Of a stretch of 64,000 bases of DNA, positions 38,154 through 63,515 are shown in pieces; positions within the stretch are counted from its first letter, which is position 1, and every line of letters begins with the position of its first letter. Location of the stretch: contig DAOTVY010000064.1 in NCBI GenBank assembly GCA_034436115.1, positions 21,235 through 85,234 on the forward strand, given 5' to 3'. The notes beneath the pieces were generated by a model. It was not told the DNA's origin. It was given only the letters and a program-made list of their open reading frames with translations, and did not search any database. Both the position numbers and the translations under genes were made by a program. Source of the DNA: Chloroflexia bacterium. Its GTDB lineage: Bacteria > Chloroflexota > Chloroflexia > DTKN01.

Positions 38154-38182
38154 TTGACGAAATTCGTCATTTGTGGTAGACT
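38154..38182 (+). promoter_or_regulatory. Putative hydrogenase-operon promoter TTGACG-17-TAGACT (extended TGg), overlapped by the 15-bp palindrome TGACGAAATTCGTCA (38155-38169)
   Basis: Hexamers with 17-nt spacing. A perfect 7-1-7 palindrome covers the -35 and spacer. Confidence 0.5.
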
Positions 38183-39356: not shown

Positions 39357-39394
39357 GCGGTCGATCGTTAGGCCGGATTGAGGAGGAGCCGACC

Positions 39395-43713: not shown

Positions 43714-43722
43714 TGGTAGAAT
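43714..43722 (+). promoter_or_regulatory. Extended -10 element TGgTAGAAT upstream of hdrC
   Basis: A perfect extended -10 about 68 nt upstream of the hdrC ATG (43790), with no good -35. Confidence 0.4.
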
Positions 43723-43789
43723 GTTGCATATTGAGAGATCCTCGGGGCACGGCGGCGCGGTTGGTTCGGGCCCTGACGTGGAGGCATAC

Positions 43790-44362
43790 ATGGTGGAGAA
43801 TCCTCTACTCCGGCTAGATCTGCGCCACAAATCCCTGGCGCAGGCGATCCTGCGCCGGCTCCAGGTGGATGTGCGCGCGTGCTACCAGTGTGGGCGCTGT
43901 ACCGCCGGCTGCCCGGTGGCATATGCGATGGACGCAGGCCCGCACCAGATCCTGCGCGGCATCCAGCTGGAACTGCACGACTGGGTGCTCAGCCGCAATA
44001 CCTACTGGATTTGCGCCAGTTGCGTGACTTGCACCACCCGCTGCCCCTGCGAGGTGGATGTCGCCCGGGTGATGGACGGCCTGCGCGAGCTGGCGCTGCA
44101 GGAAGGCATTCGCCCTTCGGAGCAGACGGTCAAGGTGTTCCACCAGGTGTTCCTGGAGTGGGTGCGCCTGACCGGCCGGATGTACGAGGCGGGCCTGGTG
44201 GGGCTCTACAACCTGCGTTCGCGCGAGTTCCTGGCCAGCGCAGACCTCGTCCTTCCGATGCTGACCCATAACAAGGTCCCCCTCCTGCCCCGGCGTTATC
44301 CTGCCCAGGCGGAGGTCGAGCGCATCTTCGAGCGTGCGCGTGCCCTGGAGGAGAAGCGATGA
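43790..44362 (+). CDS. hdrC: Heterodisulfide reductase subunit C-like (two 4Fe-4S clusters)
   Basis: CYQCGRCTAGCP and CASCVTCTTRCP. ATG after GGAGG. Confidence 0.85.
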   Translation: MVENPLLRLDLRHKSLAQAILRRLQVDVRACYQCGRCTAGCPVAYAMDAGPHQILRGIQLELHDWVLSRNTYWICASCVTCTTRCPCEVDVARVMDGLRELALQEGIRPSEQTVKVFHQVFLEWVRLTGRMYEAGLVGLYNLRSREFLASADLVLPMLTHNKVPLLPRRYPAQAEVERIFERARALEEKR

Positions 44363-45237
44363 CCCGTTACGGCTACTACCCTGGCTGTTCCCTGGAGGGG
44401 ACGGCACGCGAGTACGATGTGTCGACGCGCATTGCCTGCCAGGAGCTGGGGATCGAACTTGTGGAGTTGGAGGGGTGGAGCTGTTGCGGGGCCTCTTCGG
44501 CTCACGCGACCCGTTACTGGCTCTCGCTTGCGCTGCCTGCCCGGAACCTCCGCCTGGCCCAGGAGCAGGGTTTTTCCGCCCTTGTGGCTCCCTGCGCCAT
44601 GTGCTATGCCCGGTTGCGCCATACGCAGCATGCCCTGCGGGATCCCGCGGTACGGGAGCAGGTGAACAGCCTCCTCGATCGGCCCTTGCAGGATGCTGAG
44701 GTCAAGGTGCATTCGCTGGTCGACCTCTTCTCGGAAGAAGAGCGGCTGAACCTGTTGCGCAGCAAGGTGCAGCGCGACCTTTCGGGGCTGCGGCTGGCCT
44801 GCTACTACGGATGTCTGCTCGTGCGGCCCCCGGAGGTTCTGGAGCCGGATGACCCGGAGTACCCCACCATGCTCGACCGGATCGTCGAGGCTGCCGGCGC
44901 TACCGTGGTCGATTGGCCGCTGAAGACAGAGTGCTGCGGGGGTAGCCTGTCCCTGTCCCGCACGGACATCGCGCTCGAGCTCACGCGTCGTCTGCTCGAG
45001 GATGCCCTGTGCCGTGGGGCCAACGGCATCGTCACCGCCTGCCCGATGTGTCACGCGAACCTGGACATGCGGCAGCAGCAGATCAACCGACGGTACGGCA
45101 CCCAACTGGACCTGCCGATCCTTTACTTCACCCAGCTTGTGGGGTTGGCAACCGGACACGCCCCGAAGGAGCTGCTCCTGCACCATCATCTGGTCGAACC
45201 CTGGTCGCTTCTCGCCCAGGCCGGCATTCCGGCATAG
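44359..45237 (+). CDS. hdrB: Heterodisulfide reductase subunit B-like (two CCG domains)
   Basis: YYPGCSL...CCGAS...CAMC and YYGCLLVRP...CCGGS...CPMC. Confidence 0.9.
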   Translation: MTRYGYYPGCSLEGTAREYDVSTRIACQELGIELVELEGWSCCGASSAHATRYWLSLALPARNLRLAQEQGFSALVAPCAMCYARLRHTQHALRDPAVREQVNSLLDRPLQDAEVKVHSLVDLFSEEERLNLLRSKVQRDLSGLRLACYYGCLLVRPPEVLEPDDPEYPTMLDRIVEAAGATVVDWPLKTECCGGSLSLSRTDIALELTRRLLEDALCRGANGIVTACPMCHANLDMRQQQINRRYGTQLDLPILYFTQLVGLATGHAPKELLLHHHLVEPWSLLAQAGIPA

Positions 45238-45255
45238 GGCATGGGAGGTCGTTCG

Positions 45256-47283
45256 ATGGCCCGAGTCGGCGTTTTCGTCTGCCATTGCGGAAGCAACATC
45301 GCGGCGACGGTGGATGTGGCCAAGGTGGCCGAAGAAGCGGTCAAGATGGACCACGTCGTGTATGCCACGCACTACGTGTACATGTGCTCTACCCCGGGGC
45401 AGGAGTTGATCCAGCAAAAGATCCAGGAGTACCAGCTGGACCGGGTAGTGGTGGCGGCCTGTAGCCCGCGGATGCACGAGCGCACCTTCCGCAAGGCCAC
45501 CGCTCAGGGAGGGCTGAACCCCTACCTGATGGAACAGGCGAACATTCGGGAACACGATTCGTGGGTGCATGCGGACATCCCGGTGGCCACGGAGAAGGCG
45601 ATCGAGATCGTGCGCATGGCGGTGGCCAAGGCGGTGGGGCTGGCCCCCCTGGAAGCGGCCCAGGTGGGGATCACGAAGCGCTGCCTGGTGATTGGCGGCG
45701 GCATCGCCGGGGTGCAGGCGGCGCTGGATGTGGCCGAGGCCGGGTATGAGGTGGTGATCGTCGAACGCGAGCCCTCGCTGGGCGGGCATATGGCCCAATT
45801 GGACAAGACCTTCCCCACCCTGGACTGCTCAGCCTGTATCCTCACACCAAAGCTTGTCGACGCGGCCCAACACCCCAAGATCAAACTCTATACCTATTCC
45901 GAGGTAGTCGGCGTCAAGGGCTTTGTGGGGAATTTTCAGGTGACCATCCGGCGCAAGCCCCGTTACGTGGACGAAAAGCTCTGCACCGGGTGCGGCATCT
46001 GCTGGAACAGCTGCCCGCTGCGCCCGCGGGTGCAGGAGGACGGCACGGTCAAGGGCGGCTTCCCTTCCAAGTTCGAGGCCAACCTGGGCCGCCGGGCGGC
46101 CATCTATGTGCCCTTTGCCCAGGCGGTGCCGCTCGTGCCGGTGATCGATACGGAGCACTGCACCTGGTTCGTGAAGGGGGGCAAGTGCGGGCTCTGCGCG
46201 CAAAAGTGCCCACGGGGTGCGGTCAACTATACCCAGAGCGAGGAATTGATCACCGAGCCCTTTGGGGCAATCATCGTTGCCACCGGATTCGACCTGTTCG
46301 ACGCGCGGGCCCTAGGCGAGTACGGCTACGGACGGTACCCGGATGTGATCACGGGCCTGGAACTGGAACGGTTGATGAACGCTTCCGGGCCGACGCACGG
46401 CCACGTCCTGCGCCCTTCCGACGGCCGGCCGCCGAAGACGGTGGTGCTCGTCTCGTGCGTGGGCTCGCGCGATGAGAAGATCGGCCGGCCGTACTGCTCG
46501 GTCGTCTGCTGCATGTACCTGGCCAAGCACGCCATCATGCTCAAAGAGCACGACCCCGAGGTCGAGGTCTATAACTTTTACATGGACATCCGCGCCGGTG
46601 GCAAGGACTATGACGAGTTCACGCGCCGCGCGATCGAGCAGTACGGTGCCCACTACCTGCGCGGACGCGTCTCCCAGGTCTACGAGCGGGATGGGAAGTT
46701 GATCGTCGAGGGAGTGGACACGCTGATCGGCCGGCCGGTGGAGATCCAGGCCGATCTGGTGGTGCTCGCCACCGGCATCACTGCCCCTGAGGGGGCACGC
46801 GAGCTCTTCCAGACGCTGAACATCTCCTATAACCAGTACGCCTTCATCAACGAGGCCCATCCGAAGCTCCAGCCGGTCGAGACGAACACCGACGGGATCC
46901 TCCTGGCTGGTTGCGCGACTGGCCCCAAGGATATCCCCGCTACCGTGGCCCAGGCGAGCGGGGCTGCTGCCAAGGCGATCGGCATCCTTTCCAAGGAGAC
47001 GCTGATCGCCAACCCGATGGTCGCGGAGGTGAACGAGCGCGAGTGCGTGGCCTGCCAGCTGTGTGTCCAGGTGTGCCCCTATCGCGCGATCGAGATGACC
47101 ACCACCCGGCGCGGTAAACCGGTGGCCCACGTGAACCCCAGCGTCTGTAAGGGTTGTGGTCTCTGCGTGAACGCCTGCCGCGGTGGGGCGATCAACCTGA
47201 AAGGCTTTACCGATCAGCAGCTGGTCAGCCAGGTGAGCGCTCTCCTCGCCGAACCACTGGCCGAGGTCCTGGACGAGCGCTGA
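45256..47283 (+). CDS. hdrA: Heterodisulfide reductase subunit A-like flavoprotein (FAD + multiple Fe-S)
   Basis: CLVIGGGIAGVQAALDVAEAGYEVVIVE dinucleotide fold. Several CxxCxxC(P) ferredoxin motifs and an N-terminal CHCG...C cluster. Confidence 0.9.
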   Translation: MARVGVFVCHCGSNIAATVDVAKVAEEAVKMDHVVYATHYVYMCSTPGQELIQQKIQEYQLDRVVVAACSPRMHERTFRKATAQGGLNPYLMEQANIREHDSWVHADIPVATEKAIEIVRMAVAKAVGLAPLEAAQVGITKRCLVIGGGIAGVQAALDVAEAGYEVVIVEREPSLGGHMAQLDKTFPTLDCSACILTPKLVDAAQHPKIKLYTYSEVVGVKGFVGNFQVTIRRKPRYVDEKLCTGCGICWNSCPLRPRVQEDGTVKGGFPSKFEANLGRRAAIYVPFAQAVPLVPVIDTEHCTWFVKGGKCGLCAQKCPRGAVNYTQSEELITEPFGAIIVATGFDLFDARALGEYGYGRYPDVITGLELERLMNASGPTHGHVLRPSDGRPPKTVVLVSCVGSRDEKIGRPYCSVVCCMYLAKHAIMLKEHDPEVEVYNFYMDIRAGGKDYDEFTRRAIEQYGAHYLRGRVSQVYERDGKLIVEGVDTLIGRPVEIQADLVVLATGITAPEGARELFQTLNISYNQYAFINEAHPKLQPVETNTDGILLAGCATGPKDIPATVAQASGAAAKAIGILSKETLIANPMVAEVNERECVACQLCVQVCPYRAIEMTTTRRGKPVAHVNPSVCKGCGLCVNACRGGAINLKGFTDQQLVSQVSALLAEPLAEVLDER

Positions 47284-47298
47284 TTTCGGGAGGACAAG

Positions 47299-47733
47299 AT
47301 GTCCGAACCGTTCGAACCCCGGATCGTCGGATTCCTGTGCAACTGGTGCTCCTACGCGGGCGCCGACCTGGCGGGCACCTCTCGTATCCCTTACCCGCCG
47401 AACATCCGTATCATCCGCGTACCCTGTTCCGGCCGGGTGGACCCGATGCTGGCCATGAAGGCCTTCCTGGAGGGGGCGGACGGGGTGATCGTCCTGGGCT
47501 GCCATCCAGGCGACTGCCACTATAGCGAAGGCAACTACCACGCCCGCCGGCGGCTGGTCCTCTTCCACCGCCTGCTCGAGTTTTTCGGCGTCGAGCGCGA
47601 TCGTTTCCGCCTGGACTGGGTGTCCGCCTCCGAGGGGGTTCGTTTCGCCCAGGTCGTGGGCGAGTTTACCGAGGCGGTGCGGCGGTTGGGGCCGCGGCGC
47701 CGGCCCGAGGCCGTTCTCGAAGGGTCGCGATGA
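47299..47733 (+). CDS. mvhD: MvhD/FlxD-type [2Fe-2S] electron-transfer subunit
   Basis: IVGFLCNWCSYAGADLAG...RVPCSGRVDP...VLGCHPGDCHY. Confidence 0.85.
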   Translation: MSEPFEPRIVGFLCNWCSYAGADLAGTSRIPYPPNIRIIRVPCSGRVDPMLAMKAFLEGADGVIVLGCHPGDCHYSEGNYHARRRLVLFHRLLEFFGVERDRFRLDWVSASEGVRFAQVVGEFTEAVRRLGPRRRPEAVLEGSR

Positions 47734-49042: not shown

Positions 49043-50086
49043 ATGCCCCAACGGCTGCTGAACCCCGAAGAACTGCTTGCATGGGTGGACCGCTTGCTCC
49101 CGGGCTACCGGGTCGTGGCTCCGGTGCGGGAGGGCGAGGGACGGTTCTTCCTTCGCCCGATCGGAGGCGCCCAGGAGATGGACCTTTCGGTGACCCGGAC
49201 GGTAAACAGCCTCAAGGAGTACTTCTTCCCCCCCACGGAGGCGATCGTGCAGATCCGCCGCGGGAAGACGGCGGTGCGCCTGGAGGTGCCCGTTCCGGAA
49301 GAGCGGCAGCTCCTCTTTGCCGTCCGCCCCTGCGATGCCGCCGCGTTGGCCTCTATGGACGCGCTTTTCCTGGGGGATCCGGCCGACCCCTACTATGGCG
49401 CGCGCCGCCGGCAGAGCGTGCTCGTGGGGCTGGCCTGTTTGGAAGTACCCACGCCCGAGTGCTTCTGCACGACCACCGGCGGCTCGCCCATCGGGACGGC
49501 AAACCTGGACCTGATCCTCTACCGGGTACCCGAGGGGTACATCGTGGAGGCTCTGACCCCGCGGGGGGAGGAGCTGTTCCAGGAGGCCTCCGGCCGACCG
49601 GTCGAGCCACCCTTCCGCCCCCAGGCGCCGGGGCTTCCGGCCTATCCTTGCCCGCCCCAGGAGGACTGGATCCGCGTCTTCACCGATCCCCTGTGGGAAG
49701 AGCTAGGCGAGCGTTGCCTGGGATGCAAGATCTGTACCTACGTCTGCCCGACCTGCTACTGCTTCGACATCCGCGACCGGGGGGCCGGGGGACGGGTCGA
49801 GCGCCTGCGTGCCTGGGATGCCTGCACTTCCAAGCACTACTCCGTCGAAGCCAGCGGCCACGACCCGCGGCCGACGCGGGGGACGCGGCTTCGCAACCGT
49901 TTCTGTCACAAATACTACTACTTCCCGTGGCGCTACCAGGGTACCCTCCTTTGCTCGGGATGCGGCCGCTGTGTGGCGGCCTGTCCGGTGAACATCGACC
50001 TGACGGAAGTCCTGGAAGAAGTGGCTACCCGATCCCGGGTGGATCGCTCAAGCGGGCGCAACCAAGCACAGGGATTGGACCATTAG
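49043..50086 (+). CDS. 4Fe-4S protein paralogous to hydrogenase beta subunit (FlxC-like)
   Basis: FAVRPCDAAAL...CLGCKICTYVCPTCYCFD...CSGCGRCVAACPVNID, with domain order matching the 38322 gene. Confidence 0.7.
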   Translation: MPQRLLNPEELLAWVDRLLPGYRVVAPVREGEGRFFLRPIGGAQEMDLSVTRTVNSLKEYFFPPTEAIVQIRRGKTAVRLEVPVPEERQLLFAVRPCDAAALASMDALFLGDPADPYYGARRRQSVLVGLACLEVPTPECFCTTTGGSPIGTANLDLILYRVPEGYIVEALTPRGEELFQEASGRPVEPPFRPQAPGLPAYPCPPQEDWIRVFTDPLWEELGERCLGCKICTYVCPTCYCFDIRDRGAGGRVERLRAWDACTSKHYSVEASGHDPRPTRGTRLRNRFCHKYYYFPWRYQGTLLCSGCGRCVAACPVNIDLTEVLEEVATRSRVDRSSGRNQAQGLDH

Positions 50087-50121
50087 GACAAAAAGGTGCC
50101 TGGCAGAGGGGAGGTGGTCCG

Positions 50122-50511
50122 GTGACCACTCGTGCGCAAGACTGGCTCCGTCAGGCCGTACGGGATCTGGAGCACGCCATCGACTCGCAGGGGTTGGGGC
50201 GACACGAATGGGCCTGCTTTGCCGCACATCAGGCCGCCGAAAAGGCCGTGAAGGCCCTCCATTTGCACCATGGTCAGGAGGCCTGGGGGCACCTGGTGGC
50301 CAGGCTCCTTCGAGAGTTGCCCGGGGCGGTCATAGTTCCTGCGATGCTCGTCGAGCAGGCTCGCGTGCTGGATACGTTTTACATCCCCACCCGCTATCCC
50401 AACAGCCATCCGGAGGGGCCGCCCTTCGAGCATTATGGCCCTCTGCAGAGCGAGGAGGCGATCCGTTATGCCCGTGCGATCGTTGAGTTCGTCCGTTCTC
50501 AAATGGCCTGA
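50122..50511 (+). CDS. HEPN-domain protein (putative toxin of a HEPN/MNT pair)
   Basis: A GTG start follows GGGGAGGTGG. Rx4H motif in TRYPNSH. An all-helical ~129-aa protein. Confidence 0.7.
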   Translation: MTTRAQDWLRQAVRDLEHAIDSQGLGRHEWACFAAHQAAEKAVKALHLHHGQEAWGHLVARLLRELPGAVIVPAMLVEQARVLDTFYIPTRYPNSHPEGPPFEHYGPLQSEEAIRYARAIVEFVRSQMA

Positions 50512-50860
50512 TGCCCGGGAGGTCGTGGCCGCGGTACAGCGTTGGGCGGAGCGTAAAGCCCGGGAACACCCGGAGGTCGTGCGGATCGGGTACCTGGGTT
50601 CTTACGCGCGCGGCGATTGGGGTGTCGGCAGCGATGTGGATCTGCTGATCCTTGTCGAGCATTCTGGTGTTCCCTTCGAAGGCCGCGGTGCCCAATGGGC
50701 ACCGGACGAACTACCCGTTCCGGCCGACGTGCTGGTCTATACGCTGGCCGAGTGGCAATCCCTTCCCCGGGAGGGGCGGTTCTATCGCACCGTGATGCGC
50801 GAGGCGGTGTGGGTTTGGGAGCGCGGCACCGGAGAATCCCGGGGGCAACCCGAGGAGTGA
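50468..50860 (+). CDS. Minimal nucleotidyltransferase (MNT; putative antitoxin partner of HEPN)
   Basis: GSYARGDWGVGSDVDLLIL is the GS-x9-DxD polymerase-beta-like NTase motif. It overlaps the HEPN gene 3' end. Confidence 0.7.
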   Translation: MPVRSLSSSVLKWPDAREVVAAVQRWAERKAREHPEVVRIGYLGSYARGDWGVGSDVDLLILVEHSGVPFEGRGAQWAPDELPVPADVLVYTLAEWQSLPREGRFYRTVMREAVWVWERGTGESRGQPEE

Positions 50861-54630: not shown

Positions 54631-56031
54631 ATGGCCACTCCCTTACGGGTGCTGATTCTAGAGGATCGGGAGGCGGATGCGGAGCTTCTGGCGCTGGAGC
54701 TGAGCCGGGCCGGCTTTGCCCCCGAGTGGACCCGGGTAAGCAGCGAAGCGGAGTACCTGGCCGAGTTGGAGAAGGGCTATGATGTGATCCTGGCCGACTA
54801 CCGCCTGCCCCAGTTCGACGGGCTACAGGCGCTTCAGTTGATGCAGGAGCGCGGCCTGGATATCCCCTTTGTGCTGGTCTCGGGGACGATCGGTGAGGAT
54901 CTGGCCGTGGAGGCGATGAAGCGGGGAGCGGCCGACTACCTGCTCAAGGACCGGCTGGCACGCCTGGGAGCGGCGGTTGCCCGCGCTCTAGAAGAAAAGC
55001 AACTGCGCGAGGCCAGGCAGCGAGCGGAGGCATCGTTGCGCGAGGCCGAGGCGCGCTACCGCACCCTGTTCGAGGGGATGCCCATCGGGCTATACCGCAC
55101 CAGTCCAGACGGCCGTATCCTGGAGGTGAACGCGGCGCTGGCCCAGATGCTGGGGTTGCCGGACCGGGAAAGCGTGTTCGCGCACTACCGGCGTGCCGAG
55201 GAATTCTACGTCCATCCGGAAGAACGGGCGCGGTGGAAGGCTTGGATCGAGCGCACGGGTGTGGTTCGGCAGTATGTGGCGCAGTGGCGGCGGGCCGACG
55301 GCTCGGCCATCTGGGTGAGGGAGAGCGCGCGGGCGATCCGCGACGGGCGGGGGGAGACGGTCTACTACGACGGTGCGGTGGAGGACATCACCGCGCTGGT
55401 GCTGGCGGAGGAGGAGCGGCAGCGCACCCTGGAGCGGCTGCGGCGGATGGTGGAGGGGACGGTGCGCGCCCTGTCGGCCACGGCGGAGTATCGGGATCCC
55501 TACACGGCTGGCCACCAGCGACGGGTGGCGCGGCTGGCGGCGGCGATCGCCCGTGAGATGGGGCTTTCCCCCGAACAGGTCGAAGGGGTGGAGGTGGCCG
55601 GCATCGTGCACGACATCGGCAAATCCACCGTGCCTACGGAGATCCTGAGCAAACCCGGGCGCCTTTCGCCCGAGGAGATGGCCCTGGTACGGATGCATCC
55701 GAGGGCGAGCTTCGAGATCTTGCGCAAGATCGAGTTCCCCTGGCCGGTGGCGCTCGTTTCCCTGCAGCACCACGAACGGCTCGACGGTTCGGGCTATCCG
55801 GAGGGACTGGCTGGGGAACAGATCCTCCTGGAAGCGCGCATCCTGGCGGTGGCCGACGTGGTGGAGGCGATGTCCTCCCACCGTCCTTACCGGGCAGCGC
55901 TGGGGCTGGAGCGAGCTTTGGAGGAAGTCCGGACCCAGCGCGGCATCCTCTTCGAGCCGCAGGCTGTGGACGCCTGCCTTCGCCTCTTTGCGACGGGGTT
56001 CAAGCTCGATGAGCCCAACGGGCGGGACTGA
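54631..56031 (+). CDS. Response regulator REC-PAS-HD-GYP (putative c-di-GMP phosphodiesterase)
   Basis: VLILEDREADAELL receiver, a PAS core and the HD-GYP signature HDIGKS...HHERLDGSGYPEGL. Confidence 0.8.
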   Translation: MATPLRVLILEDREADAELLALELSRAGFAPEWTRVSSEAEYLAELEKGYDVILADYRLPQFDGLQALQLMQERGLDIPFVLVSGTIGEDLAVEAMKRGAADYLLKDRLARLGAAVARALEEKQLREARQRAEASLREAEARYRTLFEGMPIGLYRTSPDGRILEVNAALAQMLGLPDRESVFAHYRRAEEFYVHPEERARWKAWIERTGVVRQYVAQWRRADGSAIWVRESARAIRDGRGETVYYDGAVEDITALVLAEEERQRTLERLRRMVEGTVRALSATAEYRDPYTAGHQRRVARLAAAIAREMGLSPEQVEGVEVAGIVHDIGKSTVPTEILSKPGRLSPEEMALVRMHPRASFEILRKIEFPWPVALVSLQHHERLDGSGYPEGLAGEQILLEARILAVADVVEAMSSHRPYRAALGLERALEEVRTQRGILFEPQAVDACLRLFATGFKLDEPNGRD

Positions 56032-56043
56032 CGGAATCCGTCA
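56029..56043. promoter_or_regulatory. Perfect 15-bp palindrome TGACGGAATCCGTCA (copy 1 of 3)
   Basis: Begins with the stop codon of the HD-GYP gene. It lies 47 nt upstream of the TTGACA-17-TAACAT promoter (56090-56118). Confidence 0.5.
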
Positions 56044-56089: not shown

Positions 56090-56118
56090 TTGACAGATTT
56101 CGTTTCCTATGCTAACAT
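56090..56118 (+). promoter_or_regulatory. Promoter TTGACA-17-TAACAT for the AsnC-REC / GcvH-kinase genes
   Basis: Consensus -35 with 17-nt spacing in an AT-rich tract. Confidence 0.55.
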
Positions 56119-56159: not shown

Positions 56160-57017
56160 ATGTATCGCCTGGATGCCCTGGACCGCCAGATCATTCTACA
56201 TTTGCAGCGCGACGGGCGTATTCCCTATGTAGAGTTAGCTCGTTTGGTAGGGGTAAGTGAGGCTACTGTCCGGAGGCGGGTAGAGCGTCTGATTGCGGAA
56301 GGGGTGATCGAGGTTGTCGCCTGTGTCGAGCCGCGCAAGGTGGGGCTGGGAGTCGAAGCGCTGGTCTACCTCCAGGCAGAGTTGGACAAGCTGACGCACA
56401 TCGGCCAGACCCTGGCGGCCATGCCGGAGGTGCGGGAGGTGATTTACACTTCCGGGGCGCACGATCTGGTGCTGCGGGTGGCGCTGGCCTCGAACGATGA
56501 CCTTTTGCCCTTCCTGACCCGCCGGGTGGCGACGATTCCGGGAGTCAAGGCGACCCAAACCTCCTACGTTCTGCAGACGGAAAAGCACATCCACGATTGG
56601 CAGCTGCCGGAGCGGCCGGTGGCTCCGCAGCCATCTCAGGCCCGGCCCTTGATCCTGGTGGTGGATGACGACGCCGACTTTTGTGCTGCGGCCAGCATGG
56701 TGCTGGAAGCTGAGGGCTATCAAGTGATGGCCTCCTGCAATGGGCGAGAGGCAAAGGCCATATTGCAGGAGCAGACGCCAGCGCTGATCCTGCTGGATCT
56801 CATGATGGAGACGCCACTGGCCGGGCTGGAGGTATTGCAGGCCGTACGGGACGACCCACGTCTCTGTGGGATCCCTGTGCTGGCCATTTCGGCTATTCGC
56901 TCGAGCGAATGGGCAAGCGCCATCCCATCGCCGGAACAGCTGCCTTTCGACGGCTTTGTGGACAAGCCGATCGAGCCAGGGCTGCTCCTGGAGAAGGTGC
57001 ACCGACTGGTCGGCTAG
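56160..57017 (+). CDS. Lrp/AsnC-family transcriptional regulator (HTH + RAM domain) fused to a C-terminal receiver-like domain
   Basis: The N-terminus LDRQIILHLQRDGRIPYVELARLVGVSEATVRRRV is an AsnC HTH. The C-terminus LILVVDDDADF...ILLDLMME...KPI is REC-like. Confidence 0.75.
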   Translation: MYRLDALDRQIILHLQRDGRIPYVELARLVGVSEATVRRRVERLIAEGVIEVVACVEPRKVGLGVEALVYLQAELDKLTHIGQTLAAMPEVREVIYTSGAHDLVLRVALASNDDLLPFLTRRVATIPGVKATQTSYVLQTEKHIHDWQLPERPVAPQPSQARPLILVVDDDADFCAAASMVLEAEGYQVMASCNGREAKAILQEQTPALILLDLMMETPLAGLEVLQAVRDDPRLCGIPVLAISAIRSSEWASAIPSPEQLPFDGFVDKPIEPGLLLEKVHRLVG

Positions 57018-57035: not shown

Positions 57036-58754
57036 GTGCAAATCGAGCGCTACCATTTCCCGGAGGATCGTTTCTACGACCGCCAGCACAATTGGGTGCG
57101 AATCGAAGACGGCCTGGTCGTTCAGGGATTGTCCGACTATGCCCGCCAGTCCAGAGGGCCGGTGCTTTGCCTGGATCTGCCTCGCCCTGGGCGATGGGTC
57201 GCGCGGGGTGAACCGTTGACAGTTCTGGAGGCGGAGCAAGGGATCATCCGCGTCCTTGCGGCTGTCAGCGGCGAGGTGGTGGCGATCAACGAGCAGCTAC
57301 GCGACAATGCCGGCCTGGTGTACGAGGATCCCTACGAAGCGGGCTGGCTGGTGAAACTCTGTCCCACCTCTCCCGAGGAGCTCGCGCAGTTGACCCGCCC
57401 GGACGATCCGGCATTCAAGGAGTGGTTCCTGGTCTGCCTTTCTGGGGAGATCTCGCGCCAACTGGGCCGCCCGGAACGGGAGGTGCTCTCCCTGCGGCGG
57501 GACCTGGAGCGTGCCTATCATCGGCTGGAAACGCTTTACCAGATCGGCCGGGCCACGACCTCGACGATCCATCTGGAGCAAGTGCTGCAAATGGTCGTTC
57601 GTCTGACTGCCGAGGCGCTTGACGCCAAGGGATGCTCCATTCGCCTTCTGGACGATAGTGGCCAAATCTTGCGGATTGTAGCGGCCTGGGGTCTGAGTGA
57701 TCAGTATCTGCAGAAGGGACCGGTGGAGGTACGGCACAGCCTGATCGATCAGGAAGCACTCCGGGGCAAGCCGGTGATCGTGCTGGAAGCGCCTTTGGAT
57801 CCCCGGTTCCAGTACCCGGAAGAGATCGAGCGAGAGGGCATCTGTTCCGTCCTGTGCTGTCCGCTGATGGTACGGGGGCAAGCCATTGGCGTGATCCGGA
57901 TCTACAGCGCGGCCTGCTATCGCTACGGCCAGGAGGAAGCCGACTTCTTGATGACGATTGCCAGCGAGGTGGCGGTGGCGATCGCGAACGCGATGGCCTA
58001 CCGGAAGCTGGAAGAGATCGACCGGGCCAAGTCCCAGTTTGTCCTCACGGTTACCCATGAGCTTCGCTCGCCTGTGGCCACGGTACAGAGCCTCCTGCGG
58101 GTCATTTCGGGCGGGTATGCAGGCCAGGTATCCTCCAAGCAAAAGGAACTGATCGAGCGGGCCGAACGCCGGATCCTCTTCCTGCAGCAGCTGATCGACG
58201 ACCTTCTGGACCTCGCTGCGGGGAAAACGGAACATCTCACGGAGACCCCGCGACCGGTGACGGTGAATCCGGTTGTGACCAAAGTGGTCGCCCAATTGCG
58301 CCCGGTGGCCGAGGAAAAGTCGTTGGATCTGCGGGTCTATGTACCCCACGAGGCCCTTTCCGTCCTCGCTGTAGAGGACGGAATGGAGCGCATCGTGGTC
58401 AACCTGGTGGGCAATGCGATCAAGTACACGCTTCCCGGGGGGCGCGTCGAGGTCACCCTGGAGCGCCGCGGGAACGAGGCCGTGTTGATCGTGTCCGATA
58501 CCGGCATTGGTATCCCGCAGGATGCGCTGCCCCATCTGTTCGAGGAGTTCTTTCGGGCGGAGAATGCCCGGGCGATCGAGCGGGAAGGTACCGGCCTGGG
58601 CCTTTCGATCGTCAAGAACCTGGTCGAGCGGTACGGAGGCAGGATCGCAGTGGAAAGCCAGCTGGGCCAAGGGTCGACCTTCACCGTGCGCTTCCCGCTC
58701 CTGGGGACCGGAACGGTCGATGGCGGAATTCGTAAGGAAACGTCATTATCATGA
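57036..58754 (+). CDS. Histidine kinase with N-terminal glycine-cleavage H-protein (GcvH)-like domain lacking the lipoyl-lysine, followed by GAF, HisKA and HATPase_c
   Basis: The N-terminus YDRQHNWVRIEDGLVVQGLSDYA...AVSGEVVAINEQL...EDPYEAGWLVKL matches the GcvH fold, with ESVK replaced by EAEQ. H-box TVTHELRSPVATV. Confidence 0.75.
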   Translation: MQIERYHFPEDRFYDRQHNWVRIEDGLVVQGLSDYARQSRGPVLCLDLPRPGRWVARGEPLTVLEAEQGIIRVLAAVSGEVVAINEQLRDNAGLVYEDPYEAGWLVKLCPTSPEELAQLTRPDDPAFKEWFLVCLSGEISRQLGRPEREVLSLRRDLERAYHRLETLYQIGRATTSTIHLEQVLQMVVRLTAEALDAKGCSIRLLDDSGQILRIVAAWGLSDQYLQKGPVEVRHSLIDQEALRGKPVIVLEAPLDPRFQYPEEIEREGICSVLCCPLMVRGQAIGVIRIYSAACYRYGQEEADFLMTIASEVAVAIANAMAYRKLEEIDRAKSQFVLTVTHELRSPVATVQSLLRVISGGYAGQVSSKQKELIERAERRILFLQQLIDDLLDLAAGKTEHLTETPRPVTVNPVVTKVVAQLRPVAEEKSLDLRVYVPHEALSVLAVEDGMERIVVNLVGNAIKYTLPGGRVEVTLERRGNEAVLIVSDTGIGIPQDALPHLFEEFFRAENARAIEREGTGLGLSIVKNLVERYGGRIAVESQLGQGSTFTVRFPLLGTGTVDGGIRKETSLS

Positions 58755-58770
58755 CGGAATCCGTCTTTTT
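58752..58770 (+). terminator. TGACGGAATCCGTC palindrome (copy 2 of 3) followed by TTTTT; a weak intrinsic terminator or operator
   Basis: Begins with the kinase stop codon. A 5-6-bp stem (GACGG/CCGTC) plus a T5 run. Confidence 0.45.
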
Positions 58771-58791
58771 CGGGCATTTGTCCCAGGATTT

Positions 58792-58820
58792 TTGACAAAT
58801 GTCCCGGATTGTGCTATGAT
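58792..58820 (+). promoter_or_regulatory. Promoter TTGACA-17-TATGAT for the HdrD-like operon
   Basis: Consensus hexamers. Flanked and overlapped by direct repeats TTGTCCCAGGATT / ATGTCCCGGATT. Confidence 0.55.
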
Positions 58821-58856: not shown

Positions 58857-60209
58857 ATGGCGCTAAAGACGTTCGACCTCACCCGCGAGATGTTGGACCA
58901 TGCCTTCCCGGATGTTGTTGCTCCGGATAAGGAAAGGCTGCTGACTTGCATCCAATGTGGCACCTGTACGGCTTCCTGTCCAACCGCCTATGCGATGGAT
59001 TACACGCCTCGCCAGCTGTGGCGCCTGATTCAGGTCGGTCTGCGCGAGGAAGTCCTTCTGAGCAATTCGTTTTGGCTTTGTGCGGCCTGTTATGCGTGCA
59101 ACACGCGTTGCCCTCGCGGCATCCCCACCATGGAGACGATGCTAGAGCTGAAGGTGCTGGCATCGCGCGAACGGGGCGTGATGCCGCTTCCGCTGCGAGA
59201 GCGCTGCCAGCTGGTGGCGGGCACGCACAACGTAGCCGGAGAAGACAACGCCCTCCGGCTCTCCTGGGCGCTCAACCTGCCGGGGGGAAGTGGACGGTAT
59301 ACCGGGCCGCGCCGGGCAGAACTTGCCTACTTTGTTGGGTGCTATGCGGCCTTTTTCCCGCTGGCTTTCGGTGTGCCCCAGGCGATGGTGCACTTGCTCG
59401 AGCATCTGGGGCTTTCGTTCACCACGCTGGGCACGGAAGAGTGGTGCTGTGGCTACCCTTTGCTCGTCGCCGGCCGGCGCGAGGAGGCGGCAGCGCTGGC
59501 GCGTCACAATCTGGAGGTAGTGGAGCAAACGGGCGCCTCACGTCTGGTTACGGCCTGTGCGCATTGTTACCGTGTCTGGCGGGAAATCTACCCCCAGCTC
59601 CTGCCCGGCCGGAGCATTCCTCCGGTGGAGCACTCGAGCACCCTGCTCCTGGAGGAGTTCACTCGCCAGGGGATTGCTCCTTTCCCCGTGGAGGCCGTCG
59701 TCACCTTCCACGACCCCTGCGATCTAGGCCGGCAGGCAGGGCTGTACGAGCCGCCGCGGAGGCTTTTGGAAATGATCCCGGACCTGAAGCGGATCGAGAT
59801 GGCCAACTCGGGCGAGGGGGCCATCTGCTGTGGCGGGGGAGGGAACCTGCCCTGGTTGCGGGACGATGTGGTCATGGAACTGGGCCGTCGGCGGCTTGGA
59901 CAGGCGCTCGATGTACGCGTGAGCGCCTTGATCACCGCTTGCCAGCTATGCCGTCATACCTTAAGTCGGACGGCTTACCGCTGGGGGGCGCGTTTGCGGG
60001 TTTACGATCTGGTCGAGCTGGTTTGGAGCGCTCTCTCGGCACAGCCGCTCGACATTCCTGGAGCGAGGTGGCCCACTGTGCGCCATCCGGGCGCCTCGTC
60101 CCTTGGCGCCTGTTCCGAGCCGCCTTCTGGGTTCACCGGAGGGCCGCGCCCTCCGGAGGGTGGGGAACAGACCGCGCAGGCGGGCGATGATCGGGGGCCG
60201 GCCATCTAG
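58857..60209 (+). CDS. HdrD-like fused Fe-S oxidoreductase (N-terminal HdrC-like 2x[4Fe-4S] + two CCG domains; GlpC/LutA/DsrK-type)
   Basis: CIQCGTCTASCP and CAACYACNTRCP, then CCGYP...CAHC and ICCGGGGN...CQLC. Confidence 0.75.
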   Translation: MALKTFDLTREMLDHAFPDVVAPDKERLLTCIQCGTCTASCPTAYAMDYTPRQLWRLIQVGLREEVLLSNSFWLCAACYACNTRCPRGIPTMETMLELKVLASRERGVMPLPLRERCQLVAGTHNVAGEDNALRLSWALNLPGGSGRYTGPRRAELAYFVGCYAAFFPLAFGVPQAMVHLLEHLGLSFTTLGTEEWCCGYPLLVAGRREEAAALARHNLEVVEQTGASRLVTACAHCYRVWREIYPQLLPGRSIPPVEHSSTLLLEEFTRQGIAPFPVEAVVTFHDPCDLGRQAGLYEPPRRLLEMIPDLKRIEMANSGEGAICCGGGGNLPWLRDDVVMELGRRRLGQALDVRVSALITACQLCRHTLSRTAYRWGARLRVYDLVELVWSALSAQPLDIPGARWPTVRHPGASSLGACSEPPSGFTGGPRPPEGGEQTAQAGDDRGPAI

Positions 60210-60291: not shown

Positions 60292-60879
60292 ATGGCCCTT
60301 CAGTCGTTCAACCTGACCCGGGAGATGCTTGACCACTCCTTCGCCGAAACGGTAGCCCCGGACCGGGAGAAGCTGCTCACCTGCATCCAGTGCGGCACTT
60401 GCACCGCTTCCTGTCCTACCGCTTACGCGATGGAGTACACGCCGCGGCAGCTCTGGCGGCTGATCCAGGTGGGGCTACGCGACGAGGTGCTGCAGAGCGA
60501 TACCTTCTGGCTCTGCACGACTTGCTACTCGTGCACCATCCGCTGCCCGCGCGGCATCGCGGTCACCGAAACCATGGCCACGTTGAAGCGGCTCTCGGTT
60601 GCCGAGGGCGTGGAGAAGAAGGACCGTAGCGCGCGCTTCTACGAAAGTTTCATGGAAGTGGTCCACGATACCGGGCGTATGCACGAGACGCTCTTGATGT
60701 TGCGCTGGCTGCTGAAGACGAATCCGCTGCAGGCCTTTTCCTTCGCCCGGCTAGGCCTGGCGCTCCTGCGCAGGGGGAAGATGCCGCTGCGGCCCACGCG
60801 CATCCGAGGGCTGGACCAGATCTGGGCGATGTACGACAAGGTGCGCGAGATGGAGCAGAAGGAGGAGATCCTGCGATGA
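60292..60879 (+). CDS. HdrC-like 4Fe-4S protein (copy 2)
   Basis: The first ~85 aa are about 85% identical to the N-terminus of the upstream HdrD-like protein. CIQCGTCTASCP and CTTCYSCTIRCP. Confidence 0.8.
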   Translation: MALQSFNLTREMLDHSFAETVAPDREKLLTCIQCGTCTASCPTAYAMEYTPRQLWRLIQVGLRDEVLQSDTFWLCTTCYSCTIRCPRGIAVTETMATLKRLSVAEGVEKKDRSARFYESFMEVVHDTGRMHETLLMLRWLLKTNPLQAFSFARLGLALLRRGKMPLRPTRIRGLDQIWAMYDKVREMEQKEEILR

Positions 60880-61754
60880 AGTACGCTTACTATCCCGGCT
60901 GCACGTTGGAAACGGCTGCGCGCGAGTACGATGTCTCAGCCCGCGCGGTCTTTCGGGAATTGGGAGCGGAACTCGCTCCGATCCCCGACTGGAGCTGCTG
61001 CGGTTCGTCTCCAGCCGAATCGGTGGATTACCTGCTTTCCATCGCCCTGCCTGCCCGGAACCTGGCCCTGGCCGAGCAGATGGGCCTCGACATCATCGCG
61101 ACCTGTAGCTCCTGTTACCTGAGCCTCTTCAAAGTGGAGAAACATTGTCAGCGGGATCCTTCCTTGAGGGCTCGTTTGAGCGAGATCCTGGGCGCAGCCG
61201 GCCTGACCTACCAGGGCAAGGTACGGGTTCGCCACATGCTCGACGTCATCGCCAACGATATCGGTCCGGAAAAGATCCAGGCCCGGATGCGGCGCAGCCT
61301 AAGAGGACTCCGCGTGGTGCCCTACTACGGTTGCCAGACGGTGCGCCCGTTCATGGAGTACGATGGTCCCGATCTTCCCGAGTCGATGGACCGGCTTCTG
61401 GCGGCGATGGAAGCTGACGTCGTGCCCTATCTCTATAAGACGCGCTGCTGCGGTGGCATTCTGATCACTTCGACCAGAGACGTGGGCATTAAGCTGGTGT
61501 CCGACCTCCTGGCCGAGACCGATGGGGCCGACTGCGTCGTGACCGTTTGCCCTCTATGCCAGATGAACCTGGATGCCTACCAGGCAGAAGTCTCCCGGAA
61601 ACTCGGGCGCCGGGTGAACATTCCCGTGCTCTACCTGACGCAGCTGATGGCTCTGGCTTTCGACCTTCCGGATAGCGAGATCCTGCTTCAGAGGAACATT
61701 GTCTCGCCCAAGCCGGTGCTGGAAAAGCTGGGCATGCTCGGAGGGGGACGGTAG
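60876..61754 (+). CDS. HdrB-like CCG-domain protein (copy 2)
   Basis: YYPGCTL...CCGSS...CSSC and YYGCQTVRP...CCGG...CPLC. ATGA overlap with hdrC2. Confidence 0.85.
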   Translation: MKYAYYPGCTLETAAREYDVSARAVFRELGAELAPIPDWSCCGSSPAESVDYLLSIALPARNLALAEQMGLDIIATCSSCYLSLFKVEKHCQRDPSLRARLSEILGAAGLTYQGKVRVRHMLDVIANDIGPEKIQARMRRSLRGLRVVPYYGCQTVRPFMEYDGPDLPESMDRLLAAMEADVVPYLYKTRCCGGILITSTRDVGIKLVSDLLAETDGADCVVTVCPLCQMNLDAYQAEVSRKLGRRVNIPVLYLTQLMALAFDLPDSEILLQRNIVSPKPVLEKLGMLGGGR

Positions 61755-61800
61755 AGCTCCGGGTAGGCACGCGGAGGAGCCTGTTCCTCCGGCGGTCGGG

Positions 61801-62205
61801 ATGAATCGGATGAAACTGCGGGAGATTGTCGAGATCGTCGAGGGCACGCCGGTGTTTGAAACCGACCTGGATCTCGAGATCGGTTGCGGTGCTGCAGCGG
61901 ATCTGATGAGCGATGTGCTGGCGCTGGTGGAGCCGGGTGCCGTGTTGCTGACAGGGCTGTGTAATCCGCAGGTGGTGCGTACGGCGGAAATGGCCGACAT
62001 CACGGCCATCGTCTTTGTCCGCGGCAAGCAGCCGATGCCGGAGACCATCGCCCTGGCCAAGGAGAAGGGCATTCCGCTGGTGACCACCGCGCTTCCGATG
62101 TTCGAAGCCTGCGGACGGCTTCATCAGGCCGGCCTGCGGAGCTGCGATATCTCCTGTCGCATTCCCTGGCGGACCCCGGATGGCCCGGACGAGCTATCCC
62201 AGTAG
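61801..62205 (+). CDS. DRTGG-domain protein
   Basis: IGCGAAADLMSDVLA...VLLTGLCNPQVVRTAEMADITAIVFVRG...PLVTT matches the DRTGG fold seen on phosphotransacetylase N-termini. Confidence 0.6.
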   Translation: MNRMKLREIVEIVEGTPVFETDLDLEIGCGAAADLMSDVLALVEPGAVLLTGLCNPQVVRTAEMADITAIVFVRGKQPMPETIALAKEKGIPLVTTALPMFEACGRLHQAGLRSCDISCRIPWRTPDGPDELSQ

Positions 62206-62211
62206 GTTGCG

Positions 62212-63150
62212 ATGGCCGAGATCACCCGTCTTCAGGAACTTGCCTACGAGGTCAAGATCGGAGAGGTGATGACGAAGGACGTAGTCACGGTAACGCCTCA
62301 GAATACCATGGCCGAGCTCCGGGTGATCCTGCGCGACCACCGCATTTCCGGTGCACCTGTCGTGGAAGGCGGGGAACTGGTGGGGATCATCAGCGTCGAG
62401 GACCTCATCAAGGCACTGGCGGCCGGCGAGATGGATGCCCAGGTGGGGACGAAGATGACTCCTCGCCCGGTGACGGTTCGGGCCGACGAATCGGTCGTGA
62501 TGGCGATCCGCTACTTCAACCGACATGGGTACGGCCGTTTCCCTGTGGTGGATCGCGCAGGGAAACTGGTCGGCATCCTCACCCGGGGGGATATCATCCG
62601 CGGGCTGCTCAAGCAACTGGAGATGGAATACCATCGCGAGGAGGAGCTGCGCTATCGGTTCAGCCACATCTTCGAAGAACTGATTTCCGATCTCACCAGC
62701 ATTACCTTGCGTTGCCGGGTGGAGGCTCAGGACTTTGACCGTGCCGGTGAGGCCTCCAGCAAGATCAAGCGGGCGCTCACCCGCCTGGCGGTTGCCCCGC
62801 AGCTCGTCCGGCGGGCGGCGATCGTTACCTACGAACTGGAGATGAACATCATCATCCACACCACGGCAGGCGGCGAGATCCTGGCCGAAATCCAGCGCGA
62901 CCGGATCATTATCCGGGCGATCGACAGCGGTCCGGGCATTCCGGATATCGAGCAGGCGCTGCAGCCGGGCTTCTCCACCGCTCCGGACTGGGTGCGAGAG
63001 ATGGGGTTTGGGGCCGGCGTGGGGCTGAACAACGTGCAGCGTTGTGCGGACGAGATGTTGATCGAGTCGCCGGGTGCCCAGTGGACCTCTGTGAAGGTGG
63101 CGATCTACCTGAATCGGGAGTGCCTGGAGGCCGGGAAAGCGGCGGCCTGA
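62212..63150 (+). CDS. CBS-pair + GHKL (anti-sigma-factor/RsbW-like HATPase) protein
   Basis: Two CBS motifs (VMTKDVVTV..., ISGAPVV...LVGIIS; MTPRPVTV...GKLVGILTRGDII). The C-terminus AIVTYELEMNIIIHT...IRAIDSGPGIP...GFGAGVGL is HATPase_c_2-like. Confidence 0.7.
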   Translation: MAEITRLQELAYEVKIGEVMTKDVVTVTPQNTMAELRVILRDHRISGAPVVEGGELVGIISVEDLIKALAAGEMDAQVGTKMTPRPVTVRADESVVMAIRYFNRHGYGRFPVVDRAGKLVGILTRGDIIRGLLKQLEMEYHREEELRYRFSHIFEELISDLTSITLRCRVEAQDFDRAGEASSKIKRALTRLAVAPQLVRRAAIVTYELEMNIIIHTTAGGEILAEIQRDRIIIRAIDSGPGIPDIEQALQPGFSTAPDWVREMGFGAGVGLNNVQRCADEMLIESPGAQWTSVKVAIYLNRECLEAGKAAA

Positions 63151-63167
63151 TGCAGGGAGGCCGGGCG

Positions 63168-63515
63168 ATGAAGCTGGAAACGGTGGTTCGGGAACTTGCC
63201 CTGGAGGTCCGCAGCGCCGCAGGGAATCTGGGGCGCGAGGTCACCGGCGGTTACGCCGCGGACCTGTTGAGTTGCGTCATGGCTCGGGCTCAGCCCGGGA
63301 ATATCTGGGTTACGCTCCAGGGCCATCCGAACATCGTTGCCGTGGCCAGCCTCCTGAACCTGGCGGCCATTGTGGTGACCGAGGGCGTTGCACCTGACCC
63401 GGCGACCCTTTCCAAGGCCGAGGAGGAAGGCATCCCGATCCTGACCACACCGCTCACCACGTATACCGTGGTGGGAAGGCTCTTTGGATTGGGCATCCGG
63501 GGGCCGGAACGGTGA
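63168..63515 (+). CDS. DRTGG-domain protein (paralog 2)
   Basis: ATG after AGGGAGG. TGGYAADLLSCVMARAQPGNIWVTLQGHPNIVAVASLL...ILTT. Confidence 0.65.
   Translation: MKLETVVRELALEVRSAAGNLGREVTGGYAADLLSCVMARAQPGNIWVTLQGHPNIVAVASLLNLAAIVVTEGVAPDPATLSKAEEEGIPILTTPLTTYTVVGRLFGLGIRGPER

Follow-up and report, generated by a model that had tools for sequence, protein, structure and literature searches.

Sensor histidine kinases are known with PAS, GAF, Cache, and membrane inputs. In HoxJ of Ralstonia/Cupriavidus, the PAS domain is bound to a dedicated sensory [NiFe] hydrogenase, and the corresponding regulator is of the NtrC type. We know of no description of a carrier-protein fold as the input of a sensor kinase. 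Such a protein is the subject of the present analysis. In a 64,000-nucleotide stretch of DNA from a Chloroflexia bacterium (assembly GCA_034436115.1, contig DAOTVY010000064.1, positions 21,235 to 85,234; hereafter the window), the gene at 57036..58754 (+) encodes a predicted soluble histidine kinase whose N-terminal domain (N-domain) has the fold of the glycine-cleavage H protein, GcvH, but lacks the lipoyl lysine, and genes for heterodisulfide reductase (Hdr)-like proteins follow directly downstream. The reading that we favor, at a probability of roughly 45%, is that this protein is a cytoplasmic sensor kinase whose input, a degenerate and non-lipoylatable domain resembling the lipoate-binding protein LbpA of Hdr-associated systems, docks on Hdr subunits with CCG motifs and couples their state to hdr and hydrogenase transcription; both the docking and the coupling are inferred.

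The closest functional analogy is HoxJ-HoxBC, in which direct contact allows a soluble histidine kinase to read the state of a redox enzyme and to control hydrogenase genes. For the window kinase, the contact is proposed, and it would differ in being made by a carrier-protein mimic, in having an Hdr CCG subunit as partner, and in acting through an Lrp/AsnC-type regulator. The regulatory hydrogenase of the HoxJ-HoxBC H2-sensing system has been described (PMC5665086). With regard to the fold, the nearest precedent is LbpA of the sulfur-oxidizing Hdr (sHdr) system (Cao et al. 2018, PMC6067878), a GcvH-fold protein outside glycine cleavage that is genetically tied to HdrB/HdrC-type CCG proteins, with a strictly conserved lipoyl lysine and two conserved cysteines, near the N- and C-terminus (PMC6067878). 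The shdr clusters further carry DsrE/TusA/rhodanese sulfur transferases and sLpl/LipS maturation genes (PMC6067878, PMC11094781, PMC10332631). A GcvH-type protein serving HdrB outside sulfur oxidation has already been raised for Culexarchaeia (PMC9723716). The GcvH fold is also repurposed outside glycine cleavage in GcvH-L of Streptococcus/Staphylococcus (PDB 5a35), which ranked 22nd in the fold search described below; however, it is only 17% identical, stands alone, keeps a modification role, and has no link to a kinase or to Hdr.

The window kinase resembles LbpA in its fold and in its genetic link to CCG proteins, and the nearest relatives of its N-domain (class A, below) keep the lysine and travel with Hdr, lipoate-ligase, and radical-SAM genes. 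Yet the N-domain itself has neither the lipoyl lysine nor the conserved cysteine pair, it is fused to a kinase, and its context is of the hydrogenase/NADH-type Hdr kind without sulfur transferases. Judged by these features of sequence and gene context, it falls outside LbpA as defined in PMC6067878.

Domain architecture of the kinase

The open reading frame (ORF) encodes 572 amino acids (aa) from a GTG start and coincides exactly with the coordinates in a preliminary description of this DNA made from the sequence. The position of the start codon is kept among the kinase homologs, all of which open with (M/V/L)xI(E/G)RY. Pfam profiles place GCV_H at aa 13-122 (87.1 bits, E 1.1e-24, far above the cut-off of 22.2), GAF at 179-317, HisKA at 331-394, and HATPase_c at 446-555. 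No transmembrane segment was found in the 572-aa sequence, indicating a soluble protein. The catalytic boxes are intact (H-box His341, N-box 456, G1 488, G2 518) and invariant across the kinase family. In the model of the full-length protein (predicted local distance difference test score, pLDDT, 77.8), the GCV_H domain is followed by helices 125-142 and 145-176, the GAF domain, a long helix (299-358) bearing His341, the second helix of the dimerization and histidine phosphotransfer (DHp) domain, and the catalytic and ATP-binding (CA) domain. With its intact boxes and an adjacent receiver-domain regulator, the protein is by sequence a HisKA-class sensor histidine kinase, for which phosphotransfer is predicted.

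The GcvH-like domain and its missing lysine

A phmmer search against the Protein Data Bank (PDB) matched 13 GcvH chains, the best being Thermus thermophilus GcvH (1onl; E 3.6e-21, ~33% identity). In this alignment, ESVK of 1onl stands opposite EAEQ of the kinase, so that the lipoyl-lysine position corresponds to Gln68. The AlphaFold2 model of aa 1-135 has a mean pLDDT of 94.7, and its best Foldseek match was again 1onl_A (template modeling scores 0.89/0.94, root-mean-square deviation 1.4 Å), with 22 GcvH-type chains at E ≤ 0.001. In this model, Gln68 occupies the tip of the hairpin formed by strands 60-66 and 69-74, where GcvH carries its lipoyl lysine. The preliminary description had proposed a GcvH/lipoyl fold for the first ~125 aa, replacement of ESVK by EAEQ, and fusion to a GAF-HisKA-HATPase kinase, all of which the profiles, the 1onl alignment, and the model bear out.

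Throughout the family alignment, the lysine column is variable (Ala in 13 clusters, Arg in 4, Gln in 3, then Asp, Val, and Gly); it is other than Lys in 24 of 25 clusters, and one member has Lys. The hairpin flanks (E65, E67, G69, R72, and A75-E80) are invariant or nearly so, as are more than 40 positions of the N-domain over the 25 clusters. No Lys, Cys, or His of the N-domain is conserved across the kinase family alignment; Cys45, Cys109, and Cys134 of the N-terminal region occur in the window protein and are not shared by the family. An alternative modification site or a thiol switch in this domain is therefore unlikely, and lipoylation at another lysine of the domain was ruled out, none being conserved.

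Ratios of nonsynonymous to synonymous substitution (dN/dS, Nei-Gojobori) for the N-domain were 0.08-0.28 in ten pairs, rough values as dS is close to saturation, yet clearly in the purifying range. Judged by this selection, the N-domain is functional and not a relic. It differs from canonical GcvH (PF01597), whose fold it shares, in Lys to Gln at position 68, Glu50 to Arg, Asp72 to Arg, and an additional C-terminal helix. Neither GCV_T nor GCV_P was among the window genes scanned. By these sequence features, with the hybrid barrel-sandwich fold and PF01597 match present but without the lipoyl lysine and a gcvT/gcvP context, the domain is not a functional GcvH.

Distribution of the kinase family

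A search with the full-length protein returned 25 clusters at 90% identity (P0002-P0026), which are 62-100% identical and share the same four-domain architecture; some of them are labelled as Chloroflexia metagenome-assembled genomes (MAGs). With the N-domain alone, a word-indexed homolog search gave one match and missed the kinase family, including a near-identical member, which reflects a limitation of the index, as the full-length query found the family. When a library of 50% representatives was searched exhaustively with aa 1-330, the whole kinase family amounted to one representative; this search was swamped by multi-GAF proteins but still revealed P0138, described below. A survey of 185,579 species, each represented by one genome and queried with the N-domains of the kinases only, located the kinase in eight uncultured Chloroflexia MAGs and one standalone relative in an Anaerolineae MAG.

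One member is apparently split into P0312 (96 aa, GCV_H fragment) and P0027 (394 aa, GAF-kinase fragment). That the two share a contig is deduced from both being listed with a longest contig of 6558 bp. A frameshift or a misassembly could account for the split, or the gene may be genuinely divided in two.

The preliminary description had not recognized this domain combination as described, and our literature search likewise found no description of a GcvH-kinase fusion, nor of GcvH with GlcD/HdrD. One source's automated label for the kinase reads 'signal transduction histidine kinase/glycine cleavage system H lipoate-binding protein'. The pair is thus recognized by machine annotation but, as far as we found, has never been discussed, and the protein is a two-component kinase with a new type of input domain.

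An Hdr-associated LbpA-like subfamily

Profile searches with the N-domain revealed three kinds of standalone relatives. Class A proteins (141-150 aa) keep the lysine within the motif ESGKW..GR. Class B proteins (177-183 aa, Anaerolineae) have lost it and carry a three-residue insertion, and class C proteins (124 aa, motif ES[ED][DE]A..SSP) have also lost it. Arg72 is present in 24/24 kinases, 15/16 class A, and 19/19 class B proteins, whereas canonical GcvH has Asp at this position (6/6) and class C has Pro. Position 50 is Arg in the kinases and class A, as opposed to Glu in canonical GcvH. The additional C-terminal helix (P125, aromatic residue at 130) is visible in the kinase models and missing from canonical GcvH and class C. 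With the subfamily (classes A and B) defined by Arg72, a basic or aromatic residue 50, and the extra C-terminal helix, the kinase N-domain groups by sequence with these two classes and not with glycine-cleavage H proteins; the Hdr-associated LbpA-like subfamily is delineated here.

Members of this subfamily adjoin, or are fused to, a CCG-domain protein of the HdrB/HdrD type in the window, in the kinase loci that extend past the kinase gene, and in loci L004, L005, L007, L017, L018, L019, and L022. In L019 (Moorellaceae), the order is GCV_H, HdrC, HdrB, HdrA-MvhD, and then a lipoate ligase (LplA-B_cat plus DUF116). In L018, GCV_H is followed by HdrD-like, HdrA-fragment, and NuoE-like genes, and in L004 by GlcD-like and HdrD-like genes, while in L017 a lysine-bearing homolog is flanked by an HdrD-like gene on one side and HdrC-HdrB-HdrA-MvhD on the other. 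Instead of a CCG gene, L020 offers a lipoate-maturation setting, with two ligase-like genes and an FAD protein, GCV_H, and two radical-SAM genes, an arrangement that resembles the sLpl/LipS1/LipS2 pathway of PMC10332631. On the basis of these gene contexts, class A proteins are LbpA-type lipoate-binding proteins predicted to be attached to Hdr-like enzymes.

The lysine-bearing proteins (ESGKW) that travel with Hdr-like or GlcD-HdrD genes (L019, L020, L018, L004, L017, L022) come from Anaerolineae, Moorellaceae, and other anaerobes. The comparative data point to lipoylated LbpA-like proteins well beyond the sulfur oxidizers, in Chloroflexota and Moorellaceae, and these gene neighborhoods suggest that protein-bound lipoamide may serve as an Hdr substrate beyond sulfur oxidizers.

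Class B domains, which lack the lysine, are physically fused to GlcD-HdrD proteins. In P0138 (L007 3234-7409), three GCV_H-like domains in tandem precede FAD_binding_4, FAD-oxidase_C, a 4Fe-4S dicluster, and two CCG domains, and L005 (8001-11693) encodes a 1042-aa GlcD-HdrD fusion with a GcvH-like domain, in front of which stands a standalone class B gene. Upstream of these giant fusions, which have one to three lysine-less domains, a PAS/GAF histidine kinase and an OmpR-type regulator are encoded.

Class C provides a negative control. Its members lack the lysine as well as the subfamily markers and an Hdr context, so lysine loss alone does not track with Hdr; in the one class C locus examined (L023 2746-3120), the context is unrelated to Hdr and glycine cleavage. 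Often annotated 'GcvH', with ES[ED][DE]A in place of ESVK, class C proteins from Dormibacteraeota and others account for 80 of the 120 top profile matches (P0001, P0297, P0300-P0387).

Operon context

In the window and in every family locus extending past the kinase, the genes are arranged as a regulator with an AsnC-type helix-turn-helix (HTH), RAM, and receiver (REC) domains, the kinase, HdrC, HdrB, DRTGG, CBS-HATPase, and DRTGG (Table 1). The same conserved order continues in the family with HATPase, PHP, an HdrA-like fragment, NuoE-like and NuoF-like genes, and a ~594-aa protein with Fer2_4 and Fer4. This synteny is kept down to 56% N-domain identity, and regions further upstream differ. 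The Hdr-type neighbors carry the expected motifs, namely CCG (C..CC..CxxC, twice) and two CxxCxxCxxxC clusters, with NCBIfam equivalog scores below the cut-off. The HdrD-like/HdrC/HdrB set noted immediately downstream in the preliminary description is thereby substantiated by Pfam, NCBIfam, and intact cluster motifs.

The HdrD-like gene between the kinase and HdrC is restricted to the window's clade (window, L009, L011, L012). Its N-terminal 100 aa are nearly identical to those of the HdrC protein encoded at 60292-60879 (HdrC2; MALKTFDLTREMLDH... vs MALQSFNLTREMLDH...), and from this similarity the gene looks like a recent duplication of HdrC and its fusion with an HdrB-like part.

Table 1. 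Features of the kinase locus and candidate regulatory elements, in window coordinates.
Feature	Coordinates	Strand	Evidence and remarks
Promoter-like element, -35 overlapped by palindrome variant TGACGAAATTCGTCA (38156-38168)	38154..38182	+	Upstream of [NiFe]-hydrogenase operon 38322-42308
13-bp palindrome GACGGAATCCGTC, exact, candidate operator	56030..56042	.	Upstream of the promoter of the regulator-kinase operon
Sigma-70-like promoter, TTGACA-17-TAACAT, TG-extended, half-site GATTTCGT after -35	56090..56118	+	Kept in L011-L016
Response regulator: Lrp/AsnC HTH, RAM (AsnC_trans_reg), C-terminal receiver	56160..57017	+	HTH_AsnC-type 6e-18, AsnC_trans_reg 8e-16, Response_reg 2.5e-16
Kinase N-domain, aa 1-124, GcvH-fold, LbpA-like, lysine-less	57036..57407	+	Pfam, PDB phmmer, model; Gln68 codon 57237-57239
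Helical linker, aa 125-178	57408..57569	+	Models; helix 1 is the subfamily-specific C-terminal helix (DPAFKEWF), helix 2 the long signaling helix
GAF domain, aa 179-318, Cys 200, 270, 274, 275	57570..57989	+	Pfam, alignment
HisKA/DHp (His341) and HATPase_c catalytic core	57990..58754	+	Pfam, motif scan, family alignment
Second exact copy of GACGGAATCCGTC	58753..58765	.	Overlaps kinase stop codon, upstream of hdr promoter
Second palindrome GGGCATTTGTCC and half-site TTGACAAATGTCC, overlapping -35/spacer	58772..58804	.	Kept in L009, L011, L012, L015
Sigma-70-like hdr-operon promoter, TTGACA-17-TATGAT, 11/12, TG-extended	58792..58820	+	Promoter scan, footprint
HdrD-like Fe-S protein, 4Fe-4S dicluster and 2 intact CCG motifs	58857..60209	+	Pfam, NCBIfam, motif scan; listed ORF from TTG 58809, likely start ATG 58857
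HdrC-like 4Fe-4S dicluster protein, 2 CxxCxxCxxxC	60292..60879	+	Pfam, NCBIfam, motif scan; downstream in every family locus past the kinase
HdrB-like protein, two intact CCG motifs	60876..61754	+	Pfam, NCBIfam, motif scan; downstream in every family locus past the kinase
DRTGG, CBS-plus-HATPase, and second DRTGG conserved accessory genes	61699..63515	+	Pfam, synteny; operon continues beyond window end

Regulator and candidate operators

The Lrp/AsnC-type response regulator, which was absent from the preliminary description, is encoded directly upstream of the kinase in all family loci, and in the window its gene ends 18 bp before that of the kinase. Its architecture is unusual, with the Lrp/AsnC HTH and RAM at the N-terminus and the receiver at the C-terminus.

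The window contains two exact copies of the 13-mer GACGGAATCCGTC. Ahead of the regulator gene, the motif is found at the same position in all kinase-family loci included in the footprint (L001-L003 and L009-L016), often as two or three copies ~30 bp apart, a spacing that fits the cooperative binding typical of the Lrp/AsnC family. Just past the kinase stop codon, it is present in the window and in four distinct family loci (L002/L003/L015, which are one contig; L009; L011; L012). Unrelated loci gave scattered matches only. The window-wide count at up to two mismatches (5 vs 2.5 expected) is not significant by itself; the weight of the motif comes from its phylogenetic footprint and from the presence of two exact copies at intergenic positions. 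The hairpin at 58753 had been considered as a terminator; this was dropped in favor of a conserved palindromic operator, as the same 13-mer lies upstream of the regulator gene and across the family.

The second palindrome, also written GGACATTTGTCC, flanks and overlaps the hdr promoter and follows the pattern GG(G/A)CATTTGTCC; enrichment of this element was not found window-wide. The TTGACA -35 of the hdr promoter is conserved among the family loci, and its TG-extended -10 is visible in L009 and L013-L016. From the palindrome variant that overlaps the promoter-like element ahead of it, the [NiFe]-hydrogenase operon is a possible further target of the same regulator.

Proposed mechanism and alternative explanations

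In the mechanism that we propose, which builds on the fold, the lysine loss, the subfamily, purifying selection, the kinase motifs, the adjacent regulator, the HdrC/HdrB synteny, and the promoter palindromes, the lysine-less domain would act as a pseudo-substrate probe, docking on the CCG-domain subunits (HdrB, HdrD-like) that are the normal receivers of the lipoylated carrier. Docking would depend on how abundant the Hdr complex is, on its occupancy, or on its redox state. The signal would then travel through the ~50-residue helical linker to the GAF domain and the DHp/CA core, setting the kinase/phosphatase balance, and the phosphoryl group would pass to the adjacent Lrp/AsnC-HTH-RAM-receiver regulator. 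By binding the GACGGAATCCGTC palindromes, this regulator might autoregulate its own operon and control the hdr operon with its NuoE/F and large Fe-S protein genes; in this genome, it might also control the [NiFe]-hydrogenase operon. A more specific version, in which the lysine-less hairpin inserts into the CCG active site of HdrB/HdrD and reads the occupancy or redox state of the Hdr/hydrogenase complex, so that the H2/Hdr operons are controlled through the Lrp/AsnC-type regulator, is possible but doubtful. Judged by its gene content, the complex may be electron-bifurcating. The earlier suggestion of a non-lipoylated interaction or sensing module linked to Hdr is independently supported by the freely varying lysine column of a domain under selection, by the LbpA-like subfamily, and by the HdrC/HdrB synteny, while the sensing mechanism is a proposal.

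Several points weigh against this reading. The kinase-family loci are orthologous, and synteny alone could thus reflect shared ancestry. The last operon gene, encoding the ~594-aa Fer2_4 and Fer4 protein, is a putative subunit gene of the bifurcating-hydrogenase type, and the assignment of the palindromes to the Lrp/AsnC-type regulator is likewise putative. Within the window's clade, evolution is 2-5 times faster in the N-domain than in the GAF domain, possibly a sign of a looser role for the N-domain. Moreover, the GAF domain might be the actual sensor, as it contains cysteines and shares ~50-55% identity with its counterparts in sister kinases whose N-termini are quite different.

This last point leads to the main rival explanation, in which the GAF domain senses a small ligand or responds through a cysteine thiol or redox change, and the GcvH-like domain merely tethers or dimerizes a soluble kinase in place of a membrane anchor. 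We regard it as unlikely, if deserving serious consideration. The GAF-kinase core is 47-55% identical to sister kinases bearing 6TM_PilS, the motifs KGCSIRLL and EGICS.LC.PL are found again in these 6TM_PilS relatives, and the lowest dN/dS in the window's clade is that of GAF (0.02-0.05). However, two other pairs show stronger conservation of the N-domain than of GAF, and a tether needs neither the invariant hairpin flanks, Arg50, and Arg72 nor descent from one CCG-linked GcvH subfamily. The GAF domain as sensor and docking on Hdr are not mutually exclusive. The fully preserved fold, modeled at high confidence, and the purifying selection on the N-domain would also suit a metabolite sensor that binds free lipoate, dihydrolipoate, or another thiol/disulfide cofactor in the lipoyl-arm cleft. 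This appears quite improbable, as the domain offers no conserved Cys, His, or Lys for ligand binding or reaction, the Rosetta-stone and neighborhood evidence favors protein partners, and we know of no GcvH-fold protein that is a free-ligand receptor. There is a slim chance that the N-domain senses a lipoyl-protein partner or the enzymes handling it, for example by competing or pairing with a lipoylated LbpA-like protein or by binding its ligase or reductase; a lipoyl-protein partner was the second option of the preliminary description. Indeed, dedicated genes for a lipoate ligase and for radical-SAM maturation enzymes accompany the class A relatives; yet lbpA-like, ligase, and LipS genes occur neither in the window nor in any 20-kb family locus, where the ever-present neighbors are HdrC and HdrB.

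That the N-domain is a functionless relic of an accidental fusion is very improbable. The key lysine is lost, and in the closest pair the N-domain evolves faster than the neighboring domains, but the dN/dS values, the more than 40 near-invariant positions, the confidence of the model, and the retention of the domain in all family members down to 62% overall identity disfavor this explanation. The chance is minimal that the kinase senses the sulfur-oxidizing sHdr-LbpA system, the background on which the preliminary description had drawn. The LbpA-sHdr partnership is established (PMC6067878, PMC11094781), and Hdr-like genes do adjoin the kinase. However, no DsrE, TusA, rhodanese, lipoate ligase (sLpl), or LipS genes were found in the annotated 64-kb window, no sulfur-transferase or maturation genes were called in the family loci, and the operon runs on with DRTGG/CBS-HATPase, PHP, the HdrA fragment, NuoE/F-like genes, and the large Fe-S protein. 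The window also holds HdrCBA-MvhD and a [NiFe] hydrogenase, so its annotated gene content indicates an anaerobic H2/NADH-linked Hdr setting, and the sulfur-oxidation reading was rejected on this annotation.

If the lysine-less domain docks on HdrB/HdrD, as we propose, it would give a handle on the regulation of Hdr-type/hydrogenase complexes and on the disulfide substrate of Hdr-like enzymes outside methanogens. Were insertion into the CCG active site also true, the kinase would represent the first case of a carrier-protein mimic serving as the input of a two-component system, as well as the first regulator dedicated to Hdr complexes of this kind. In Chloroflexota and other anaerobes, the non-methanogenic Hdr enzymes would then have protein-bound lipoamide as their physiological disulfide. 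The kinase belongs to a narrow uncultured lineage, and its key interaction is at present a proposal; yet a defined regulator and candidate operators make the system testable in vitro despite its uncultured hosts.

Origin of the fusion

The next-closest kinases (e.g., P0030, P0046) show their 47-55% identity over GAF-HisKA-HATPase and have a 6TM_PilS module in place of the GcvH-like domain. These 6TM_PilS-GAF-HisKA-HATPase kinases resemble the window kinase in the shared GAF-kinase core, and at least one of them has the same regulator type and one stands beside a standalone GcvH-like gene; they differ in having a polytopic membrane input instead of a soluble GcvH-like domain. The sister kinase of L021 is accompanied by the same type of AsnC-HTH/RAM/REC regulator and lies beside a [NiFe] hydrogenase. 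In L022, a sister kinase (49% identical) is preceded, at a distance of 33 bp, by a standalone lysine-bearing, class-A-like GCV_H gene, in a setting of HdrA/MvhD/HdrC ... GlcD/HdrD genes; from its gene order, this arrangement resembles the state before fusion. Most simply, an lbpA-like gene beside a membrane GAF kinase would have become fused to it, displacing the six-transmembrane module, and the lysine was likely lost later.

Wider context in the window

The [NiFe]-hydrogenase operon at 38322-42308 comprises Fer4_22, FAD/NAD, and small and large subunit genes. Genes for a receiver protein and an ACT protein come next, and after them the full HdrC-HdrB-HdrA-MvhD set (43721-47733). The kinase sits in a dense redox/signaling island with two further kinases, two receivers, and one REC-PAS-HD-GYP protein. 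Elsewhere in the window, a Rex-type redox-sensing repressor (Put_DNA-bind_N plus CoA_binding) is encoded at 19083-19721 (-), and an RACo corrinoid activase at 31331-33235 is present together with two pterin-binding proteins; these genes hint at an anaerobe of the Wood-Ljungdahl type. Finally, inspection by eye at ~50100-50860 revealed a HEPN-like ORF (the C-terminal part of ORF 49081-50511) and a nucleotidyltransferase-like ORF (50435-50860, motif GSYARGDWGVGSDVDLLI); together they resemble a HEPN/MNT pair inserted between the genes for the Fer4_22 and FAD/NAD oxidoreductases.

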